From positions 1-34,529 of the forward strand of contig CAYTNO010000001.1 in NCBI GenBank assembly GCA_964439125.1: a stretch of 34,529 nt of DNA. Reading direction: 5' to 3'. The DNA comes from an uncultured Woeseiaceae bacterium (lineage in GTDB: Bacteria > Pseudomonadota > Gammaproteobacteria > Steroidobacterales > Woeseiaceae). The position numbers were made by a program, and so were the translations under genes. The notes beneath the pieces are model-generated. The model saw nothing but the letters and a program-made list of their open reading frames with translations. It was not told the DNA's origin and did no database searches. The number at the start of each line of letters is the position of its first letter. The stretch's first letter is position 1. Positions 3,548-20,641 of this stretch are shown here, in pieces.

Positions 3548-5615
3548 CCTCGAATCAGCACTGACCGTACTTAACGGCGTCGGGCCCGCACTCGCGAAAA
3601 AGCTCGAGCGGCTTGGCCTGTATCGCGTCGAAGATCTTCTTTTCCTGTTGCCATTGCGATACGAGGATCGAACGCAGATGGTCAAAATCGGCGCGCTTCA
3701 GCCAGGGAAGCGATGCCTGATCACGGGCGAAGTGTTGCTGGCTGAGGTGGCATTCCGTGGTCGCCGCAACCTGCTGGTTCGCATCGACGATGGCAGCGGC
3801 CAGATCACGCTGCGATTCTTTCATTTTTCGCGGCAGCAACAGGCGCAGTTTCGACCGGGCGCCCATGTCACCTGTTTCGGTGAGGCTCGTAAGGGCGCGG
3901 CAAGTCTGGAAATGATTCATCCCGAGTACCGCATTCTCAAAGAGAACCAGGACGCCGAGATTAACGAAAGCCTGACGGCGATATACCCGGCCACGGAAGG
4001 GGTGCAACAGGGCCGCTTGCGCAACCTCACGAACCAGGCACTACGCATAATGGGCGACGCCCCGCCATCCGAACTGCTACCGGAAAGCGTTCGCGAGAAA
4101 CTGGATCTTCCGGTGCTTGTTGACGCGATCGCGTATTTGCACAGGCCGCCGCCCGATGCGGACGTCGCGCGAATGATCGAGGGGACGCACCCGTGCCAGC
4201 AGCGGCTCGCTTTCGAGGAGTTGCTCGCACATTACCTTAGCTTGCGGAATCTGCGCGCACTCGCGCAGACCGAGAGCGCAAGGGCGCTGGCCGAAGGCGG
4301 TTCCCAGGTAGAAAAGTTCATCGCCGATCTGCCATTTACGTTGACGTCGGCGCAGCAACGCGTCGTTGACGAAATTCTTCAAGATCTGGCGGAACCGCAT
4401 CCGATGATGCGTTTGATCCAAGGCGATGTGGGGTCCGGTAAAACGGTGGTGGCCGCCATCGCGTGCCTGAAGGCGATCTCATGCGGCGTTCAGGCTGCAA
4501 TCATGGCGCCTACCGAGTTACTCGCCGAGCAACACTGGCGTAGTTTTGGTGACTGGTTTCGACCGCTTGGCATTGAGCCAGCCTGGCTCAGTGGCAGTCA
4601 ACGAGCCGCCGCCAGACGCGAAGCGCTTGCATCAATTGCGGACGGCAGTGCCGGTCTGGTCGTTGGCACGCACGCCCTTTTTCAGGAGGGCGTTGAGTTT
4701 CAAAACCTTGCGCTTGTGATTATTGACGAACAGCATCGCTTCGGCGTTCATCAGCGTGTGGCCCTGCGCGAGAAAGGTGTCACGGAGCACGGCCATCCCC
4801 ACCAACTCGTCATGACAGCAACGCCTATTCCGCGCACGCTGGCGATGGCCGCTTACGCCGACCTGGACACTTCGATAATCGACGAATTACCTCCCGGGCG
4901 ACAGCCGGTTTCTACCGTTGCTCTTCCCGACGCGCGCCGCGAAGACGTTGTCGCACGGGTGCGAACTGCGTGTCAGTCCGGTCAGCAGGCGTATTGGGTC
5001 TGCCCGCTCATCGAAGAGTCTGAAGTGCTGGATTTCGAGGCCGCCGAGGTCCGCTACGAAATGCTCGTGCAGGCTCTGCCTGACCTGCGTATCGGCCTCG
5101 TTCACGGCCGCATGCGTCCCGCCGAAAAGGAACGCGGCATGCAGGCGTTCAAAGACGGTCTCATCCAGTTACTTGTGGCCACAACAGTCATCGAGGTTGG
5201 CGTCGACATACCTAACGCGAGCCTGATGATCATCGAGAACGCTGAACGCATGGGCCTTTCGCAGCTACACCAGCTGCGTGGGCGCGTGGGGCGGGGCACC
5301 ACGCAAAGTCACTGCGTGCTTTTGTACAAACCGCCGCTGGGGCGGCTGGCACGCACCCGACTCGCGGTACTGCGCGATACCAATGATGGCTTTGTTGTTG
5401 CCCAACGTGACCTCGAGCTGCGCGGTCCGGGTGAACTGCTCGGCACGAAACAGACTGGCTTGCCGGAGTACCGTATCGCCAACCTGGTTCGCGATGCGGA
5501 GTTGATGCCGCAGGTGCAGGCGGCGGCAGAGTCGGTGCGTCGTCTTGCGCCAGACAGCGCCGCGGCAATTGTGCGCCGCTGGCTGGGTGATGCCAGCCGT
5601 TATGGAAAGGTCTGA
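3528..5615 (+). CDS. recG: ATP-dependent DNA helicase RecG
   Basis: N-terminus [35 protein letters not shown], Walker A GDVGSGKT and the DEQHRFG box. The track ORF begins at a GTG at 3489 inside ridA. I prefer the ATG at 3528 by alignment with the E. coli RecG N-terminus. The start remains uncertain. Confidence 0.9.
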
Positions 5616-13974: not shown

Positions 13975-14877
13975 ATGAACACGAACGTGGAGACGTACGC
14001 GGACTGGCGTGACTATTACGAGCTGACAAAGCCTCGTGTCGTCATGCTGATTGTGTTCACGGCCATCGTTGGCATGTTCCTGTCAGTACCCGGCTGGCCC
14101 GGCGCCGCAGCACTGATTTACGGCACGCTCGGTATCGGACTGGCCGCATCGTCAGCAGCTGTGTTCAATCACGTTGTCGATGCGCGCATCGACATTCAAA
14201 TGATGCGTACGCGCGGCCGCCCCCTGCCGCAAGGAAAGCTGACCGAGAAGTCGGCGCTCGTCTTTGCGTCAGTGATCGGTATCGTAGCAATGATCATCCT
14301 TACGTCTCTCGTTAACACACTGACCGCTGTCCTGACCTTTGTTTCCCTGATCGGCTACGCCGGCGTTTACACGATGTATCTCAAGCGTGCGACGCCGCAG
14401 AATATTGTCATCGGTGGCGCGGCCGGTGCAGCGCCTCCAATTCTTGGCTGGACCACCGTGACGGGCGAAGTAACCAGCAGCGCTTTGCTACTCTTCCTGA
14501 TTATCTTCCTTTGGACACCACCACATTTCTGGGCGCTGGCCATCGCAAGAAAGGAAGAGTACGCGAAGGTCGATATTCCGATGCTTCCTGTGACGCATGG
14601 CGAGGCCTACACGCGGTTAAATATTCTTCTGTACACCATCCTGCTTTTTGTCATTACGATCATCCCGTACCTGACCCGCATGAGCGGCGTTATCTACTTG
14701 CTGTCGGCAATCGTCCTTGGCGTTGCTTATCTCATTTACGGGATTCGGATGTGGCGCGATCACGATGATCTCGAATTGCCGATGAAGTCGTTCAGGTTTT
14801 CAATTTCTTATCTTGGATTACTTTTCTCCGCACTGCTGATAGACCATTACTTCCTGTTCCAGCTAAATCTCTGGTAG
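13975..14877 (+). CDS. ctaB: Protohaem IX farnesyltransferase (haem O synthase)
   Basis: 300 aa polytopic protein. NHVVDARIDIQMMRTRGRPLP and WTPPHFWALA are typical of CyoE/CtaB. Confidence 0.93.
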   Translation: MNTNVETYADWRDYYELTKPRVVMLIVFTAIVGMFLSVPGWPGAAALIYGTLGIGLAASSAAVFNHVVDARIDIQMMRTRGRPLPQGKLTEKSALVFASVIGIVAMIILTSLVNTLTAVLTFVSLIGYAGVYTMYLKRATPQNIVIGGAAGAAPPILGWTTVTGEVTSSALLLFLIIFLWTPPHFWALAIARKEEYAKVDIPMLPVTHGEAYTRLNILLYTILLFVITIIPYLTRMSGVIYLLSAIVLGVAYLIYGIRMWRDHDDLELPMKSFRFSISYLGLLFSALLIDHYFLFQLNLW

Positions 14878-14976
14878 CGGCAACAAAGCAAGCGTCGTTT
14901 CGGCCGTGGCTTCGGATAATTATTGCCAACCCCACCCTTGCCGTGCGCGCATCCAGCGCTACACTCAGCGCTTCTT

Positions 14977-15516
14977 ATGAGTAACGCTAACCGAACTCAG
15001 GCTTTTGAGCGTCTGGTGCGACCGCACTTCGACCGTTTGTTTCGACTCGCGTGGCGCCTGACGGGCGCCAAGGCAGAGGCCGAAGACCTGTTTCAGGAAT
15101 TGTTGATCAAGGCGTTCGGCCAGTTGGACGACCTTGTAGCAAAGGACGAGCCCGGAGCGTGGCTGTGCCGCGTTATGTACAACCTGTTTATTGACGAGCA
15201 GCGCCGCTTTGCGCGTCGCCGCATGCTTACCGTCGAAGAGGGGCAGCTCGCCGGCGACGGGATTGCGGGCCTGGCCGGCCCTGACGACCCAGCTTACGAC
15301 CATGCCCGTTACGAGACTCTGAAGCAACTGGACGCGGCGCTCGCCCAATTAAGCGATGAACACCGTACTGTAGTGCTCCTGCACGACACAGAGGGCTACA
15401 AATTATCAGAAATACAAGAACTTACCGGCATACCAGTTGGCACAATCAAATCCCGACTGCATCGCGCCAGAGCACGTTTGCGCGAAATTCTCACCGAAAA
15501 CGGAACCATTTCCTGA
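14977..15516 (+). CDS. ECF-type RNA polymerase sigma-70 family factor
   Basis: 179 aa from the ATG at 14977. Region 2 (FERLVRPHFDRLFRLAWRLTG...AEDLFQELLIKAF...WLCRVMYNLFIDEQRR) and region 4 HTH (VVLLHDTEGYKLSEIQELTGIPVGTIKSRLHRARARLRE). Confidence 0.88.
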   Translation: MSNANRTQAFERLVRPHFDRLFRLAWRLTGAKAEAEDLFQELLIKAFGQLDDLVAKDEPGAWLCRVMYNLFIDEQRRFARRRMLTVEEGQLAGDGIAGLAGPDDPAYDHARYETLKQLDAALAQLSDEHRTVVLLHDTEGYKLSEIQELTGIPVGTIKSRLHRARARLREILTENGTIS

Positions 15517-15551
15517 AGCACTGCGTGTAAGAGACGAAGCAGGATGAAATC

Positions 15552-16097
15552 ATGATAAAAAACGACATTAATCAACCGATTGGCGATGATAGTGAGATTC
15601 AGGCGCTGTTAAAGGATTACCCGATGCCCGAAGCTGCAACAGGATTCTACGACCAGGCGCTGGTGCGGGCGACGCACGAAGGATCGCGCCGGCAACGCAA
15701 TCGTTGGTTGATGACCGGGTTTGGCTCAGCGATCGCAGCAACAATTGCTATTTGGGCAATTAGTAGCGTGCTTCTGACGACACCTGACTTGCCAAACCCC
15801 GCGGCCACAATTCCGGGTGTCAGCATTGCCCTTGAGCAGCCGCGCACCGTGAACCTGGTTTTTGCGTCTGCAACGTCACTGGATAGCGCGACGCTGACTG
15901 TGTCGCTACCCGCCGGCATCGAGCTCGATGGCTTTCCGGGGCAGCGCGAGATTACCTGGGAAACCAGCCTCAACAAAGGCAAAAACCTGTTGCCGTTGAC
16001 GCTTGTCGCCCTTAGTCCGGCCGGCGGTGAACTGCTTGCCCGCCTTGAACATGACGATCGCGACCGGACTTTCCGTTTGCTTGTGGATGTAACCTGA
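15552..16097 (+). CDS. Single-pass membrane protein, putative anti-sigma factor (position-based)
   Basis: 181 aa. About 50 aa of cytoplasmic N-terminus, a TM helix (WLMTGFGSAIAATIAIWAISSVLL), and a periplasmic domain of about 105 aa. Starts 35 nt after the sigma gene, with AGGA 8 nt upstream. No HxxxCxxC zinc anti-sigma motif is visible. Confidence 0.5.
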   Translation: MIKNDINQPIGDDSEIQALLKDYPMPEAATGFYDQALVRATHEGSRRQRNRWLMTGFGSAIAATIAIWAISSVLLTTPDLPNPAATIPGVSIALEQPRTVNLVFASATSLDSATLTVSLPAGIELDGFPGQREITWETSLNKGKNLLPLTLVALSPAGGELLARLEHDDRDRTFRLLVDVT

Positions 16098-16140
16098 GAA
16101 CCGACCGAAACGGATTCGGCGGTGTTATTGGAGTAAGGAC

Positions 16141-16632
16141 ATGAAACATTTCAACGTATTTATCGCGACGCTCATATTGACTGGCCTCGCCTTTCTTCCG
16201 GCCACGGCGTGGGCCGATGACGATGACTGGGATGACCTCGACGTAACAATGGAAATCGTCGATGACCTCGCGAGTGTCGGAGATACCATCGCGAGAATGG
16301 AGGGTCCGGGGGACGTCGTCGCAGATAGCGGTGATGATTTGGATGGTGTTTCGGACGACGGTTCGGACGACGATTCAGATGATGACAGGACCGATGGTTC
16401 GAACGACGACAGCGCCTCGGACGACGACGAAGGTGAGATGGACAGCGAGGACGATGAAGCGTCCGAGTTCGAGGAAGAGGACGGCGACAGCTTCGCGGAC
16501 GACCACGACTTCGAGGACGAAGATCTCGATGACGAAGACGACTTCGAGGACGAAGAAGGCGAAGACGTCGACGATGACGACGATGACGACGATGACATGG
16601 ACGATGACGGCCTCGACGACGACGCGGTCTAG
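16141..16632 (+). CDS. Secreted hyper-acidic (Asp/Glu-rich) low-complexity protein
   Basis: 163 aa. Good Sec signal peptide (MKHFNVFIATLILTGLAFLPATAWA, AWA-D cleavage site). The mature part of about 138 aa contains about 60 Asp and 17 Glu, only 2 Arg and 1 His, and no Lys (hand count). GGAG...AAGGA RBS lies upstream. An intrinsic terminator follows. Confidence 0.75.
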   Translation: MKHFNVFIATLILTGLAFLPATAWADDDDWDDLDVTMEIVDDLASVGDTIARMEGPGDVVADSGDDLDGVSDDGSDDDSDDDRTDGSNDDSASDDDEGEMDSEDDEASEFEEEDGDSFADDHDFEDEDLDDEDDFEDEEGEDVDDDDDDDDDMDDDGLDDDAV

Positions 16633-16680
16633 TCCGAATTGAGCCTTAAAACGGGCGCAATCGATGAGTTAATGCCAAAT

Positions 16681-16714
16681 CCCTCCGAAAGAGCCCTTTC
16701 GGGGGGATTTTCTT
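16681..16714 (+). terminator. Rho-independent terminator after the acidic-protein gene
   Basis: CCCTCCGAAAG-agcc-CTTTCGGGGGG forms an 11-bp stem (one G-U pair) with a 4-nt loop, followed by ATTTTCTT. It lies 48 nt after the stop at 16632. Confidence 0.7.
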
Positions 16715-16799
16715 GCGCCACGTCATAGTTTTTAGGGGTACAAAGCCGGTACCCTTGCCAGTCTACATAACGCGGACCATCAGGAGCTTGGGCAAGCCC

Positions 16800-18410
16800 G
16801 TGATACGTGCGACAACACACCAACTAAGATCCTTCGCGGCGATAGCCTTGCTGGCGATCTCTTTGTGCCTGACGCCCGCGTTAGCGGCGACCGCGCAGGA
16901 CGCATTCGAAGACGGCAACCGGCTGTTCCGCGACGACCTCTACTGGGCGGCATTACTCCGCTATCGACAGGCCGAGGAAGCCGGCATGGACACGCCGCTA
17001 TTGCACTACAACACCGGCGTCGCCCATTATCGCGCCCAGCAACATATTCGCGCTCGCACCGCGCTGCTCAAGGCGGTTCAGTCGCCGAGCCTGCGTGTCA
17101 TTTCGCAGTACAACCTCGGTTTGACCGCACACGCGCTTGGCGATGTTGATGACGCCCTCCACTGGTTCCGGCAGGCTCGCGACCAGCAAGAAAACGAGAA
17201 GATCCGCGAGTTCGCCATTATCGCAATTTCACGCCTGCAGACTGAGAGCAAAGCATCAGACACTATTCTCGTGCGTGTGAAGAAACGGCGTAAAGAGAAA
17301 AAGGTTGGCGATTTCGATCTGCACGCGATTGTCGGCTTCGGCAGCGATGACAACGTATACCGCTCACCCAGCCAGCCATATATCGATTTTTCTGACCCGG
17401 CCTTGCCGCTGGTAACGCCGGAGGAGGTCTCGGGCACCTACCTGCCCGTCGACCTGTCCGCCAAGTACTCCGTTAACAGCCTCAGGTTCGAGTCTTTCTT
17501 TGGTGAATACCGCCTGTCCGGCCGCTACTACCCGGACGAGGAACTCGACAATGCCAACGAGTTCAGCCACGAAATTCGCTTTGGTAGTGAATTCGACCGC
17601 AAGCAAGGCACACGCGAGCGCGAAGTCTATAGCGCATTCGCAGTTGCCCAGCATGATGAGACCTACTTTGATCCTGATGATGGCGGGGCTCGCGCTGTCG
17701 ACGGAGTGCTAATTGATGATCGCTTCAACTACGTACGCTACGGGCCGGAGATGCGCTTTCGTCAGTCGCATGAGCGCCTGTCGGTCGGTATGCGGATCAA
17801 AGGTCAGCTTTGGAACTACGACAAGACCGATGTCGTGCCAGAGTACGACCACGAGTACTTTGAGCTCGGCGCAAACGTGCAGTACCGCTTCACGAGATTC
17901 TCTCTGTTGCGCCTGACCGTTGATGCAACCAGCCGTCGCTTCGGTGACCGGCCATCGTTTGATCTCGACGGCCAACAGCTCATCACCAATAAGGAGCTGC
18001 GGTACGACTACCTCTACCTGGGTTTGCTCGCCAGACAGCGCATTACTGAGCAGATGTGGTTTGGATTCGGCTACGAGCATACGAGTCGCACCGACAAATT
18101 TGAGGGCTACAACGACTACACACGGAACGGCTACACGTTTGAGTTCAGCTGGTCTCCGAGCCCGCGATTCGAACTCGATCTGGATGCTTACTACCGCGAT
18201 TACGATTTCCCGAACGCTTTCGCGTTCAACAATCCCGTCGCCGGGCCAAAAACTCTCGAGACGGCATACGGCCGCCTTACCGGCACATTCCGCATGACTC
18301 CGCACCTGCACCTGGTTGCCGAAGCGCTGTACCGCGAATCTGTATCGACCGACATACGTATCGGCTACGAACGTAAGCGCTACTCAATCGGTCTTCTTTG
18401 GCGACAATAA
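16800..18410 (+). CDS. Outer-membrane protein: N-terminal TPR-like domain plus C-terminal beta-barrel (14-16 predicted strands)
   Basis: The GTG at 16800 gives the signal peptide VIRATTHQLRSFAAIALLAISLCLTPALA-ATAQD. TPR-like helices (AFEDGNRLFRDDLYWAALLRYRQA..., YNTGVAHYRAQQH..., YNLGLTAHALGDVDDALHWFRQA), then a basic linker (KKRRKEKK), then about 350 aa of alternating amphipathic strands rich in Y/F/R/D (e.g. MWFGFGYEHTS, NGYTFEFSWS, RYSIGLLWRQ). The track start at 16713 (TTG) lies inside the terminator U-tract. The start is uncertain. Confidence 0.72.
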   Translation: MIRATTHQLRSFAAIALLAISLCLTPALAATAQDAFEDGNRLFRDDLYWAALLRYRQAEEAGMDTPLLHYNTGVAHYRAQQHIRARTALLKAVQSPSLRVISQYNLGLTAHALGDVDDALHWFRQARDQQENEKIREFAIIAISRLQTESKASDTILVRVKKRRKEKKVGDFDLHAIVGFGSDDNVYRSPSQPYIDFSDPALPLVTPEEVSGTYLPVDLSAKYSVNSLRFESFFGEYRLSGRYYPDEELDNANEFSHEIRFGSEFDRKQGTREREVYSAFAVAQHDETYFDPDDGGARAVDGVLIDDRFNYVRYGPEMRFRQSHERLSVGMRIKGQLWNYDKTDVVPEYDHEYFELGANVQYRFTRFSLLRLTVDATSRRFGDRPSFDLDGQQLITNKELRYDYLYLGLLARQRITEQMWFGFGYEHTSRTDKFEGYNDYTRNGYTFEFSWSPSPRFELDLDAYYRDYDFPNAFAFNNPVAGPKTLETAYGRLTGTFRMTPHLHLVAEALYRESVSTDIRIGYERKRYSIGLLWRQ

Positions 18411-18478: not shown

Positions 18479-20641
18479 ATGGACGTCACGCCGATCCTCG
18501 AATCTCTTAACGACGCTCAGCGTCAAGCCGTCACTGCGGCCGCGGAACCCATGTTGGTCATCGCTGGCGCCGGCAGTGGCAAGACGCGTGTGCTTGTTCA
18601 TCGCGCAGCATGGCTGATCGATGTCGAAGGCATCTCGCCGCATAGCTTGCTGGCCGTGACCTTTACCAACAAAGCTGCCGCAGAAATGCGCGGTCGCATC
18701 GAGGCTCTGCTCGGCACGCCGGTTGGCCACCTGTGGATAGGCACGTTTCACGGGCTTGCACATCGCCTGCTGCGCCGGCACTGGCGCGAAGCGGAGCTAC
18801 CGCAGAATTTTCAGATCATCGACTCGGATGACCAGCTTCGGCTAATCAAACGCCTGCTGCGCGGCATGGATGTCGATGACAGCCTCTGGGTACCCCGGGA
18901 AATTCAATATTTCATTAACGCGCAAAAGGACGAGGGCCTGCGACCGAAGCATCTCGATGACGAGGGCGACCCGAATCGACGCCAGATGATTGCTTTTTAC
19001 CAAGGCTATGAAGAGGTTTGTCAGCGCGGCGGGCTGGTCGATTTCGCAGAGCTGTTACTGCGCGCCCACGAGCTTTGGCGCGATAACGCCGAACTGCTGG
19101 CGCACTATCGACGTCGCTTCGCACATCTGCTCGTCGACGAATTTCAGGACACGAACGCCATTCAATACGCCTGGCTGCGGTTACTCGCGGGAGACAAGGG
19201 CGTGCCCTTTGTTGTCGGTGACGACGACCAGTCTATCTATCGCTGGCGCGGTGCCCGAGTTGAGCATATTCATCGCTTCCAAAAGGACTTTCCATCCGCC
19301 TCGCTGGTCAAGCTCGAGCAAAACTACCGTTCCACAGCGACGATTCTGAATGCGGCCAACGCCGTTATTGCGAACAACAGTTCACGCCTTGGCAAGAATC
19401 TCTGGACCGAAGGTGCCGACGGCGAACCGATTCGCGTCTACTCCGCTTACAACGAACGTGATGAAGCGGATTTTATAGTCGGTCGCCTGCGCGACTGGAT
19501 AGCCCAAGGCAACCTGCGTGCCGACTCGGCCATACTGTATCGATCAAACGCACAATCTCGCGTTCTTGAAGAGGGCCTGATCAACGCTCGCATACCGTAT
19601 CGCGTTTACGGCGGCCTGCGTTTTTTCGAGCGAGCCGAAATCAAGGATGCGCTTGCGTATCTCCGGCTGATTTCAAACCGCGATGACGATTCGTCTTTTG
19701 AGCGCGTCGTCAACCGTCCGACTCGCGGCATCGGTGCCCGCACAGTTGAGATAATGAGGTCCTACGCGCGTGCCAACAGCTGTTCGATGTGGCGCGCGGC
19801 AGGGGCAATCGGCAGCGACGAACTCAATAGCCGCGCCGCGAATGCCGTACTCGCATTTTTGAACCTGATCGAAAAAATGGCGCGGGACGTTGCCGAGCTA
19901 GGTCTACAGGAAAAAGTTGATCACGTTATCTACGCCAGCGGCCTGGTGGATCTGTTCAAGAAGGAAAAGGGCGAAAAAGGCGAAACACGTGTCGAGAACC
20001 TGCTCGAGCTCATCAGCGCGGCGAAAGGTTTTGAGCGAGACCCTGCAGAGGAAATGTCGGAGCTGGACGAGTTCCTGTCGCATGCGGCACTCGAAGCCGG
20101 CGAGGGTCAGGCGGATGCGTGGGAAGACTGTGTGCAACTAATGACGATGCACTCCGCTAAAGGTCTCGAATTCCCGCTGGTATTTCTGTCGGGCATGGAA
20201 GACGGGCTATTCCCCCACCAGCGCTCCATCGCTGACCCTAGCGGCCTCGAGGAAGAGCGACGCCTCTGCTATGTAGGAATTACCCGCGCCAAGCAATTGC
20301 TGTACATCACCCATGCCGACCAGCGTCGTTTGCACGGTATGGACAATTTTTCTCAACCGTCTCGCTTTATTTCCGAGATACCGGATGAGTTCGTCGAAGA
20401 GGTTCGCCCGCGCGTACAGGTCTCAAGGCCGATGCGCTCTGCATCCCGGCGCAGCGTCAAATCGACGGCTGGCAACGAGCTTGGCATCCGGCTTGGGCAG
20501 AGGGTGCGGCACGCCAAGTTTGGCGAGGGCGTCATCCTCAATTGCGAAGGCCAGGGCGCGCACGCGCGCGTCGAGGTTAATTTTGAGACGGCCGGCACAA
20601 AATGGCTTGTTCTGAGCTATGCGAATCTCGATCTGATGTAA
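18479..20641 (+). CDS. uvrD: DNA helicase II
   Basis: 720 aa. Contains LNDAQRQAV, Walker A AGAGSGKT, DEFQDTN, VGDDDQSIYRWRGA and YRSN, plus a C-terminal RVRHAKFGEGVI domain. Confidence 0.95.
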   Translation: MDVTPILESLNDAQRQAVTAAAEPMLVIAGAGSGKTRVLVHRAAWLIDVEGISPHSLLAVTFTNKAAAEMRGRIEALLGTPVGHLWIGTFHGLAHRLLRRHWREAELPQNFQIIDSDDQLRLIKRLLRGMDVDDSLWVPREIQYFINAQKDEGLRPKHLDDEGDPNRRQMIAFYQGYEEVCQRGGLVDFAELLLRAHELWRDNAELLAHYRRRFAHLLVDEFQDTNAIQYAWLRLLAGDKGVPFVVGDDDQSIYRWRGARVEHIHRFQKDFPSASLVKLEQNYRSTATILNAANAVIANNSSRLGKNLWTEGADGEPIRVYSAYNERDEADFIVGRLRDWIAQGNLRADSAILYRSNAQSRVLEEGLINARIPYRVYGGLRFFERAEIKDALAYLRLISNRDDDSSFERVVNRPTRGIGARTVEIMRSYARANSCSMWRAAGAIGSDELNSRAANAVLAFLNLIEKMARDVAELGLQEKVDHVIYASGLVDLFKKEKGEKGETRVENLLELISAAKGFERDPAEEMSELDEFLSHAALEAGEGQADAWEDCVQLMTMHSAKGLEFPLVFLSGMEDGLFPHQRSIADPSGLEEERRLCYVGITRAKQLLYITHADQRRLHGMDNFSQPSRFISEIPDEFVEEVRPRVQVSRPMRSASRRSVKSTAGNELGIRLGQRVRHAKFGEGVILNCEGQGAHARVEVNFETAGTKWLVLSYANLDLM

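Follow-up and report, generated by a model that had tools for sequence, protein, structure and literature searches.

Several described systems share parts or principles with the locus analysed here. In the exopolymer exporters AlgK/AlgE, PelB, BcsC and PgaA, a periplasmic tetratricopeptide repeat (TPR) module is joined to, or lies next to, a beta-barrel of 16–18 strands, and in AlgE a polyanion passes through an arginine-lined pore. Slam proteins (type XI secretion) have a signal peptide, a short TPR domain and a C-terminal barrel, described with 14 strands, and lie beside the gene of their cargo. In the curli system the dedicated outer-membrane channel CsgG, with CsgE and CsgA as partners, passes unfolded protein without ATP, and in the FecA–FecR–FecI system the outer-membrane protein FecA contacts the periplasmic domain of the anti-sigma factor FecR. 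Here we describe a four-gene cassette at positions 14977–18410 (forward strand) of a 34,529-nt stretch of DNA (hereafter 'the window') on contig CAYTNO010000001.1 of assembly GCA_964439125.1, from an uncultured Woeseiaceae bacterium. It encodes a sigma factor of the extracytoplasmic function (ECF) type, a membrane protein descended from an anti-sigma factor, a secreted polyacidic protein and an outer-membrane beta-barrel with a periplasmic TPR domain. Its likeness to curli and Fec is one of working principle only, and we detected no kinship in sequence or fold. CsgG forms a lipoprotein nonamer, unlike the TPR-barrel, and FecA is a 22-strand TonB-dependent receptor with a plug. The parts of the cassette are of known kinds (an ECF pair, a TPR and barrel protein, an acidic disordered protein), but their combination is undescribed: we found no system of this composition in the main text of the ECF classification paper, the literature, Pfam, NCBIfam or the PDB, in keeping with an earlier, sequence-only reading of this DNA, which had known of none.

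The sigma gene (14977–15516, 179 aa) is followed by gene 2 (15552–16097, 181 aa), which encodes a single-pass inner-membrane protein, by gene 3 (16141–16632, 163 aa), which encodes the secreted polyacidic protein, and by gene 4 (16800–18410, 536 aa, starting with GTG), which encodes the TPR-barrel. All four lie on the forward strand between a UbiA-family ctaB-like gene (13975–14877) and uvrD (18479–20641), flanks that we identified by tblastn to loci whose genes have PF01040 and UvrD Pfam matches. Gaps of 35 nt and 43 nt separate the first three genes, and an intrinsic terminator (16677–16714) closes them as a unit. The terminator consists of a 15-bp stem (16677–16691 paired with 16696–16710) followed by UUUUCUU up to 16714; it folds at −23.5 kcal/mol (z = −4.2), a value that none of 200 shuffled sequences reached. 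A hairpin with a T-run occupies the same position in aligned Woeseiaceae-type loci and in the distant loci L086, L092 and L093, so that conservation extends to the two-unit layout. Gene 4 begins 86 nt past the terminator; its mechanical open reading frame (ORF) opens at TTG 16713, but AGGAG at 16782–16786 precedes GTG 16800, and the signal peptide MIRATTHQLRSFAAIALLAISLCLTPALA comes after that GTG. The four same-strand genes between ctaB and uvrD, the two gaps, the strong terminator and a fourth-gene start about 85 nt beyond it had all been proposed in the sequence-only reading, and ORF positions, flank identification and folding agreed with each.

The cassette recurs as a unit. Scanning one genome per species of the Genome Taxonomy Database (GTDB) with the barrel gave 188 species, of which we examined the best 80, all metagenome-assembled genomes (MAGs) of Woeseiaceae type; the order sigma–gene 2–gene 3–barrel was kept nearly everywhere in these 80, and in about 90 loci overall. 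Pooling the loci with at least 2.4 kb of upstream DNA, we found the complete trio of sigma gene, gene-2 homologue and acidic ORF at 89 of 99 TPR-barrel loci. Four of the 10 exceptions were detection misses, which raises the count to about 93 of 99: an N-gap in L090, and an acidic ORF under our Asp/Glu (D/E) cutoff in L014, L085 and L089. Five others (L020, L064, L067, L078 and L080) have gene 3 and the barrel without the sigma gene and gene 2, and in L088 a gene-2-like membrane protein directly precedes the barrel, with no sigma gene. Relatives that consist of the barrel only never had the trio (0 of 27 loci), so that TPR fusion correlated perfectly with it (Fisher p = 1e-19, a value that is only indicative because the loci are related). 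Many loci carry extra DNA between ctaB and the sigma gene (for example, L011 and L048) and others between the barrel and uvrD (L001, L012, L021, L070 and L073), whereas we never found an insertion inside the four-gene block among these loci.

Because synteny within one family could simply be inherited, we examined contigs of distant barrel relatives. In six loci (L086, L089, L090, L091, L092 and L093) the cassette is present but not flanked by ctaB and uvrD; since L086 and L089 have a neighbourhood in common, these amount to about five distinct contexts. The barrels of these six are ~30–47% identical to each other and 32–38% identical to those of Woeseiaceae type. All six loci have an ECF sigma gene, a gene-2 homologue and a TPR-barrel, and five have an acidic signal-peptide protein, the corresponding position in L090 being an assembly gap. 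Co-occurrence across genomes, which had been put forward earlier as the check on a dedicated system, was therefore found both in the pooled loci and outside the ctaB–uvrD neighbourhood, and we conclude from gene order and content that the four genes are a real module rather than chance synteny.

The mature product of gene 3 has 77 D/E among its 139 residues (55%), only two K/R, and an isoelectric point (pI) of ~4, so that the Sec-exported protein of about 55% Asp/Glu foreseen in the sequence-only reading was found as described. Its signal peptide is cleaved after AWA; the motif DDWDDLDVTMEIVDD...ARMEGP follows, and then a low-complexity D/E tail. No Pfam or NCBIfam model matched it. An alignment of the family at 78 loci showed the same plan throughout, with a signal peptide, a conserved block of ~30 residues and a D/E tail that varies in length and sequence; the proteins range from 118 to 223 aa in total and from 45 to 69% D/E. 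The block reads [DE]DL[DE]VTM[EI]V[LIV]DD...[IL]..[MI]..M.GP and is recognizable in the distant loci (GLDVTMEVLDD in L086, GLDVTMQVLDD in L089, DDLEVTMSV in L091, DDLEVMMEV in L092 and DDLEITMEVID in L093), and another lineage has the variant DDLDVDSFDVLDD followed by SDSEDSDSED repeats. A conserved head attached to a free-running acidic tail suggests a docking handle joined to a bulk-charge effector. The extreme C terminus (16618–16632 in the window; compared with loci L003–L085) is also biased, with V or I as the last or penultimate residue in 64% of cases versus 16% of the background, and might serve as a recognition tag of the PDZ or TPR-clamp type.

Some further features of this family can be set beside these. 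The proteins often end in DD[VI]x0-1-COOH, as in DDDAV, DDNV, DDVI and EIVD. Tails of SDSEDSDSED type replace plain D/E runs in L112:4043–4390, L119:3973–4371 and L130:3208–3633, and recall the acidic Ser/Asp repeat proteins of eukaryotic biomineralisation. On the 2.7-Mb contig of L001 (5187–5585) the acidic gene turns into a K/R-rich repeat tail, apparently through a frameshift inside the acidic repeats. In L090 a Trypsin_2–PDZ_2 protease gene lies just downstream of the barrel. Opposite gene 3, a 157-aa Ser-rich antisense ORF (16125–16598, reverse strand) mirrors the GAC/GAT/GAA repeats, and we take it to be an artefact and not a gene.

Gene 4 encodes a signal peptide, a periplasmic TPR domain (residues ~33–164, pI 9.6) and a 16-strand beta-barrel (~170–535). 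In an AlphaFold2 model of medium confidence (mean predicted local distance difference test score (pLDDT) 76.6), TPR-type helices span residues 33–164 and are followed by 16 strands, and Pfam gave a TPR_2 match (5.3e-8) together with a weak OMP_b-brl match, so that the beta-barrel with a periplasmic TPR domain, as first read from the sequence, held up in both analyses. When we searched structures with Foldseek, the top match was BcsC (9b8a, E 6.7e-9, query TM-score 0.35), followed by porins, AlgE and PelBC; on this model we take the BcsC match to reflect architecture and no specific relationship. More than 1,200 homologues are present in a set of 5.8 billion proteins, all named 'hypothetical' or 'TPR repeat protein', and the named ones come from Woeseiaceae or from unclassified gammaproteobacterial MAGs. 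An exhaustive search of representatives returned 1,259 proteins at E ≤ 1e-3, with full-length relatives 31–41% identical.

Comparison with named barrel families gave little. Slam proteins resemble gene 4 in their signal peptide, short TPR domain, C-terminal barrel, size and adjacent cargo gene, but their barrel is PF04575, which matched neither the window protein at E ≤ 1 nor the consensus of its barrel family. Two of 27 distant barrel members did pass the PF04575 threshold (27.0 and 27.7 bits versus a cutoff of 22); we regard these as weak cross-hits within the barrel superfamily and rejected Slam membership. Moreover, Slam cargo is a lipoprotein or has a C-terminal beta-barrel domain, whereas gene 3 has no lipobox cysteine (its signal peptide is of AxA type) and no such cargo domain, but an acidic disordered tail. 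PF10082 (BBP2_2) likewise failed to match gene 4 at E ≤ 1; it matched seven of the 27 distant members and, in the consensus, only the last 53 residues, which correspond to the C-terminal strands. Models of BcsC and PgaA did not match gene 4, an NCBIfam EpsL match was weak (15.4 bits against a cutoff of 275), and a PDB profile search with the distant barrels returned TPR proteins only. By these comparisons the barrel belongs to the general outer-membrane beta-barrel superfamily and fits no specific family within it. The exopolymer exporters share its architecture, with a periplasmic TPR module and a barrel, and the conserved lumen residues of the barrel, which are mostly Arg/Lys, are a further likeness to AlgE. 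They differ in that the TPR arm of the cassette is short (~130 aa), in that no synthase, glycosyltransferase or cyclic di-GMP receptor gene lies nearby, and in that the constant neighbours are a gene-encoded acidic protein and an ECF pair.

Gene 2 lies directly downstream of the sigma gene, the position expected of a class I anti-sigma factor. Its product comprises a cytoplasmic remnant of ~52 aa, a basic stretch (RRQRNRW), one hydrophobic transmembrane helix (~53–75) and a periplasmic beta-sandwich of ~100 aa (~90–181; AlphaFold2 pLDDT 67–83 over this C-terminal domain), and it matched no Pfam or NCBIfam model. The ancestry of the protein became apparent when we aligned the upstream sequence of divergent loci, which revealed H-x3-C-x2-C, the defining motif of zinc-finger anti-sigma (ZAS) factors, in orthologues of gene 2; the L034 protein (4611–5249, 212 aa), for example, contains ...LDAHVDSCNTCRQT.... 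Orthologues with HxxxCxxC were found in L019, L034, L051, L086, L089, L090, L091 and L092 and in 16 metagenome loci, and several of the distant ones are annotated with PF13490 (zf-HC2), so that, directly downstream of a sigma gene, they share these features with class I ZAS pairs. Counting only bounded ORFs, we found the motif in 21 of 23 copies outside the window's clade, whereas 78 of 81 Woeseiaceae-type copies, and likewise that of the window, lack it along with the N-terminal half of the anti-sigma domain. Nor is there room for it in the window: the sigma gene stops at 15516, gene 2 starts at 15552, and the 35-nt gap has an in-frame stop seven codons upstream of gene 2. Since the motif is absent from the window protein and present in its orthologues, we class gene 2 as a descendant of the ZAS family (PF13490) rather than a member, and conclude from the alignments that the N-terminal half of the ancestral protein was lost in the window's clade.

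What remains of gene 2 is well conserved. The residual ~50 cytoplasmic residues are almost invariant across the clade (LLKDYPMP..GFYDQALVRATHEGSRRQRNRW), compatible with a candidate short anti-sigma domain; the short class II anti-sigma domains, such as that of CnrY, are of similar size. The periplasmic domain (pI 4.6) is the best conserved part of the whole cassette and, in a further departure from class I pairs, has no family assignment. Its best Foldseek matches were macroglobulin (MG) domains of complement C3/C5 (E 3e-5); these are generic Ig/macroglobulin-like sandwiches and we set them aside as giving no functional lead. Of the anti-sigma-like membrane protein described in the sequence-only reading, then, the single pass, the ~100-aa periplasmic domain and, by descent, the anti-sigma kinship stood, whereas the zinc-binding half is missing; the expectation that neither this protein nor the barrel would fall into a family of established unrelated function agreed with the Pfam, NCBIfam and Foldseek results. 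If the reading that we favour below is right, gene 2 would be a natural example of an anti-sigma factor that lacks its zinc-binding half and is still under strong selection.

The sigma factor is the only product of the cassette that Pfam and NCBIfam place in a characterised family, as had been supposed. It matched Sigma70_r2 (9.8e-13), Sigma70_r4_2 (2.2e-16) and Sigma70_ECF, with PF04542 and PF08281/PF04545 on residues 13–79 and 116–170, scored 82.7 bits against a cutoff of 42.9 for NCBIfam TIGR02937, and had no match to a sigma-3 domain in either collection. With sigma-2 and sigma-4 regions only and a score over the cutoff, it is by its domain content an ECF (group 4) member of the sigma-70 family. 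The nearest solved structures are Mycobacterium tuberculosis SigE (1.9e-25) and SigH and Bacillus subtilis SigW and SigL, the sigma factors of the pairs SigE–RseA, SigH–RshA, SigW–RsiW and SigL–RslA, to which it is the most similar. All NCBIfam equivalogs scored far under their cutoffs (the best, SigE, at 118 versus 265). Every cassette lineage has an orthologue of 170–197 aa in the corresponding position. No ECF group with such a gene context is named in the main text of the 2021 ECF classification (Casas-Pastor 2021), and a Woeseiales transcriptome paper has SigV as its only sigma-related mention.

Upstream of the sigma gene we read a sigma-70-like promoter candidate (14938–14965, forward strand), with TTGCCG at 14938–14943, a 16-nt spacer and TACACT at 14960–14965. 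It ends 11 nt before the ATG, and no Shine-Dalgarno sequence precedes that ATG, so that the sigma mRNA would be near-leaderless. The pattern TCCTTG(T/C)..N17-18..TA(C/G)ACT is conserved upstream of the sigma gene in 42 distinct Woeseiaceae-type sequences, and an upstream AAAnTGCCAA element is conserved with it across the clade; the sigma gene promoter thus looks like one of sigma-70 type.

The barrel gene has conserved non-coding sequence of its own, in three blocks that span 16715–16773 (forward strand) and are candidate promoter or operator elements: block A, GCGCCACGTCATAGTTTT (16715–16732), begins immediately past the terminator, block B is CCGGTACCC (16746–16754), and block C is TCTACATAACGC (16762–16773), written (C)TGACATAACGC as a consensus. 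In 73 of 86 loci the barrel has upstream of it the core of block A, CGTCAT[AG]GT[TA]T, for which there are only two other matches in 1.02 Mb, and both 'TCATnGTnT' and 'ACATAA' are invariant over 14 divergent loci. We found no conserved RNA pairs in this leader and no Rfam family, which ruled out an RNA element and points to the blocks as DNA-level signals. Two promoter readings fit them, TCATAGTTT-16/18-CGGTA, which is ECF-like, and (T/A)(T/A)GCCG-16/17-CATAAC, which is sigma-70-like; for sigma-54 the spacing is wrong.

The barrel-only relatives are ~400 aa long and 26–31% identical to the window barrel in the representative search. Scanning metagenomes with them gave 80 loci, 38 of which hold short forms; the long, TPR-fused forms among the 80 were again accompanied by the trio and the 38 short forms never were. 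Instead, 28 of the 38 lie directly behind the gene of a ~640-aa protein with an N-terminal transmembrane helix and many TPRs (median distance 4 nt). Further upstream, 22 have an ATP-grasp protein (TIGR02291, 'alpha-L-glutamate ligase-like', 9.3e-80; PF14397) and 21 have a seven-transmembrane (7TM) inactive transglutaminase (RloB model, 1.2e-49; PF14402). The resulting order of RloB-like 7TM transglutaminase, RloC-like ATP-grasp protein, membrane-anchored TPR protein and barrel is seen in L110:418–6068, in L095, L099, L102, L103 and L138, and in ~30 other metagenome loci. The layout of this four-gene operon suggests synthase-dependent export of a poly-amino-acid polymer.

In Pseudomonas aeruginosa, RloB and RloC act with secreted retropepsin-like RloA proteases, which cleave glutamate-rich sequences, and the Rlo system is required for hypo-osmotic tolerance; its product is unknown, with poly-alpha-glutamate considered a possible substrate by the authors (PMC12239564). 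The published Pseudomonas RloABC operon is described without a TPR or barrel gene (PMC12239564). The four-gene operon may identify the outer-membrane exit of Rlo-type systems. In those operons, as in the cassette, the same barrel family is combined with TPR repeats and a likely polyacidic peptide. The difference is that the window has no ATP-grasp or transglutaminase gene and its polyanion is ribosomally encoded, so that two branches of the family would each pair TPR repeats with a probable polyacidic peptide, one made by an ATP-grasp enzyme and the other encoded by a gene.

The rest of the window is housekeeping in character, with spoT, recG, a second UbiA-family gene, trkH, a TRAP transporter, POT and AbgT, and a megablast of the region against plasmids returned no matches and hence no sign of mobile origin. 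Beyond the window, the insert between the barrel and uvrD in L001 (7996–10962) encodes a 431-aa porin-like protein with a coiled-coil N terminus, ZnuA and an ABC-3 permease. Genes with a TonB_C domain are convergent to or near the barrel in L086 (7592–10018), L088 (8767–9408), L089 (7752–8861) and L093 (6992–7576). Next come genes for a response regulator and a histidine kinase in L086, L089 and the P0468 contig, and in L089 and P0468 the kinase has a DAHL domain. These neighbours, not seen in the window's clade, may reflect either lineage synteny or a functional link.

How might the four proteins work together? The reading that we favour, tentatively and at slightly less than an even chance, is that the TPR-barrel, controlled by the ECF factor, conducts the polyanionic protein through the outer membrane or anchors it there. 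Gene 3 would supply an intrinsically disordered polyanion, made on ribosomes, exported by Sec and carrying a net charge of about −75; its conserved N-terminal motif (DLDVTMEVLDD...EMRGP) would act as the docking handle. The basic periplasmic TPR arm of gene 4 would capture the acidic protein by its handle or tail, and the Arg/Lys-lined 16-strand barrel would let the tail through, or display or hold it at the surface. An inside-negative Donnan potential and the binding of seawater Mg/Ca outside would pull the polyanion outward, in which case no ATP source would be needed. The periplasmic beta-sandwich of gene 2 would sense the device and report to the ECF sigma factor through the residual anti-sigma domain, and the sigma factor would in turn adjust expression of the cassette or of unlinked envelope genes. 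The physiological role would probably lie in envelope charge or in cation or osmotic homeostasis. Our picture of the lumen comes from 28 homologues, in which the conserved lumen-facing residues, picked by strand alternation rather than from coordinates, comprise ~15 R/K versus ~6 D/E; the invariant or near-invariant R/K are R238, R242, R313, R332, K334, R371, R379, R412, R414, R430, R442, R466, K484, R498 and R512. The earlier proposal that the barrel exports or anchors the polyanion is thus favoured indirectly, by the correlation of TPR fusion with the trio, the Arg/Lys lumen, the arm of pI 9.6 and the ligase-like operons of its relatives, whereas docking and translocation are steps that we infer.

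Several observations weigh against this reading. Charge over all lumen positions is balanced (24+/23−), the choice of lumen residues by alternation being itself a caveat, and the Foldseek matches of gene 4 are generic, with TM-scores of ~0.35. The L088 barrel has no adjacent acidic gene, and the phylogenetic relatedness of the loci means that our counts overstate independence. Compared with a class I anti-sigma domain, gene 2 of the window is two or three helices short and has no zinc ligands. Because the product of the Rlo operons is unknown, that analogy stacks one inference on another. As to control by the sigma factor, the promoter of the sigma gene looks sigma-70-like, and we identified no ECF-type motif (−35 AAC, −10 CGT) common to the sigma and barrel upstream regions across lineages. 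For the barrel, sigma control as proposed in the sequence-only reading was not supported, given that the strong terminator splits its gene transcriptionally from genes 1–3 and that it has conserved blocks of its own. These blocks are kept in the five loci without sigma and gene 2, which speaks against the barrel depending strictly on the adjacent sigma factor, unless sigma and gene 2 now lie elsewhere in those genomes.

A bolder form of the favoured reading, which we consider possible but doubtful, is that the cassette and the barrel-only exit of RloBC-type systems form a single new class of exporter for polyanionic peptides, the cassette being a new outer-membrane pathway for gene-encoded polyanionic disordered proteins; the TPR arm would dock the N-terminal handle, and the tail would be drawn electrophoretically through the arginine-lined barrel and released or displayed as a polyanion brush while the cut-down anti-sigma factor monitored the process. 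There are also rival explanations. Unlikely in our estimate is a module for signalling only, in which gene 3 acts in the periplasm as RseB/MucB or CpxP do, modulating the anti-sigma protein and sensing cations or cationic compounds with its acidic tail, and no export takes place, the TPR-barrel being an outer-membrane sensor partner (as FecA is for FecR) or a mere regulon member. Such a module would fit the true ZAS descent of gene 2 and the strong conservation of its periplasmic domain, the enclosure of sigma, gene 2 and gene 3 in one terminator-closed unit, and L088, in which a gene-2-like periplasmic domain is paired directly with the barrel; the basic TPR arm (pI 9.6) could also bind the acidic periplasmic domain of gene 2 (pI 4.6). 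It is harder to square with the five genomes that keep gene 3 and the barrel without sigma and gene 2 at the locus, or with barrel-only paralogues linked to polymer-type operons and not to regulators, and the cutting down of the anti-sigma domain in most of the clade while the periplasmic domain was kept suggests a role beyond signalling.

Quite unlikely, in our view, is that the gene-3 product is retained in the periplasm, where this non-diffusible polyanion, comparable as a protein to the anionic osmoregulated periplasmic glucans, would set the Donnan potential and buffer Mg/Ca or trace metals; the barrel would then be an ion or solute porin, and its TPR arm would keep the polyanion near the mouth. 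The extreme charge and the variable low-complexity tails would suit a protein in which bulk charge matters over sequence, the organisms come from marine sediment, potassium-uptake genes (trkA and trkH) lie just downstream, although this synteny is possibly incidental, and the related Rlo system is tied to hypo-osmotic tolerance (PMC12239564). A plain porin, however, could do without a TPR arm, and the barrel is fused to TPRs exactly where gene 3 and gene 2 are present; the conserved-arginine lumen suits anions over cations, and the long, periplasm-spanning TPR protein that precedes the barrel-only relatives, in a polymer-export layout, would go unexplained. We hold it very improbable that the barrel exports an exopolysaccharide, as BcsC, PgaA, PelB and AlgE do, and has nothing to do with the acidic protein: although BcsC heads the structural matches with AlgE and PelBC also listed, and weak EpsL and some PF10082 matches point the same way, no glycosyltransferase or synthase gene adjoins the barrel in the contexts examined, PF10082 matches the consensus over its last 53 residues only, and no neighbour of the barrel is as constant as gene 3. 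Scarcely credible, finally, is inherited synteny without functional coupling, in the ctaB–uvrD interval of one family. Within Woeseiaceae-type genomes the cassette does sit nearly always at the same chromosomal place, but it recurs with other flanks in distant lineages, break points fall on both sides of the block and never inside it, and the trio is absent from all 27 barrel-only loci.

Few bacteria of marine sediments are as abundant as Woeseiaceae-type Gammaproteobacteria, and most of their examined genomes carry the cassette. If the conduit-or-anchor reading is true, the TPR-barrel would represent a new way to move a protein across the outer membrane or fix it there, through a charge-matched pore with the envelope potential as the only obvious source of energy. 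Gene 3 and its relatives would constitute a new class of bacterial polyacidic proteins, which may control surface charge, cation binding, mineral encrustation or osmotic balance. The barrel family would also yield a concrete hypothesis of what RloBC-type operons make and by which route it leaves; in Pseudomonas, these operons influence antibiotic tolerance and biofilm formation.

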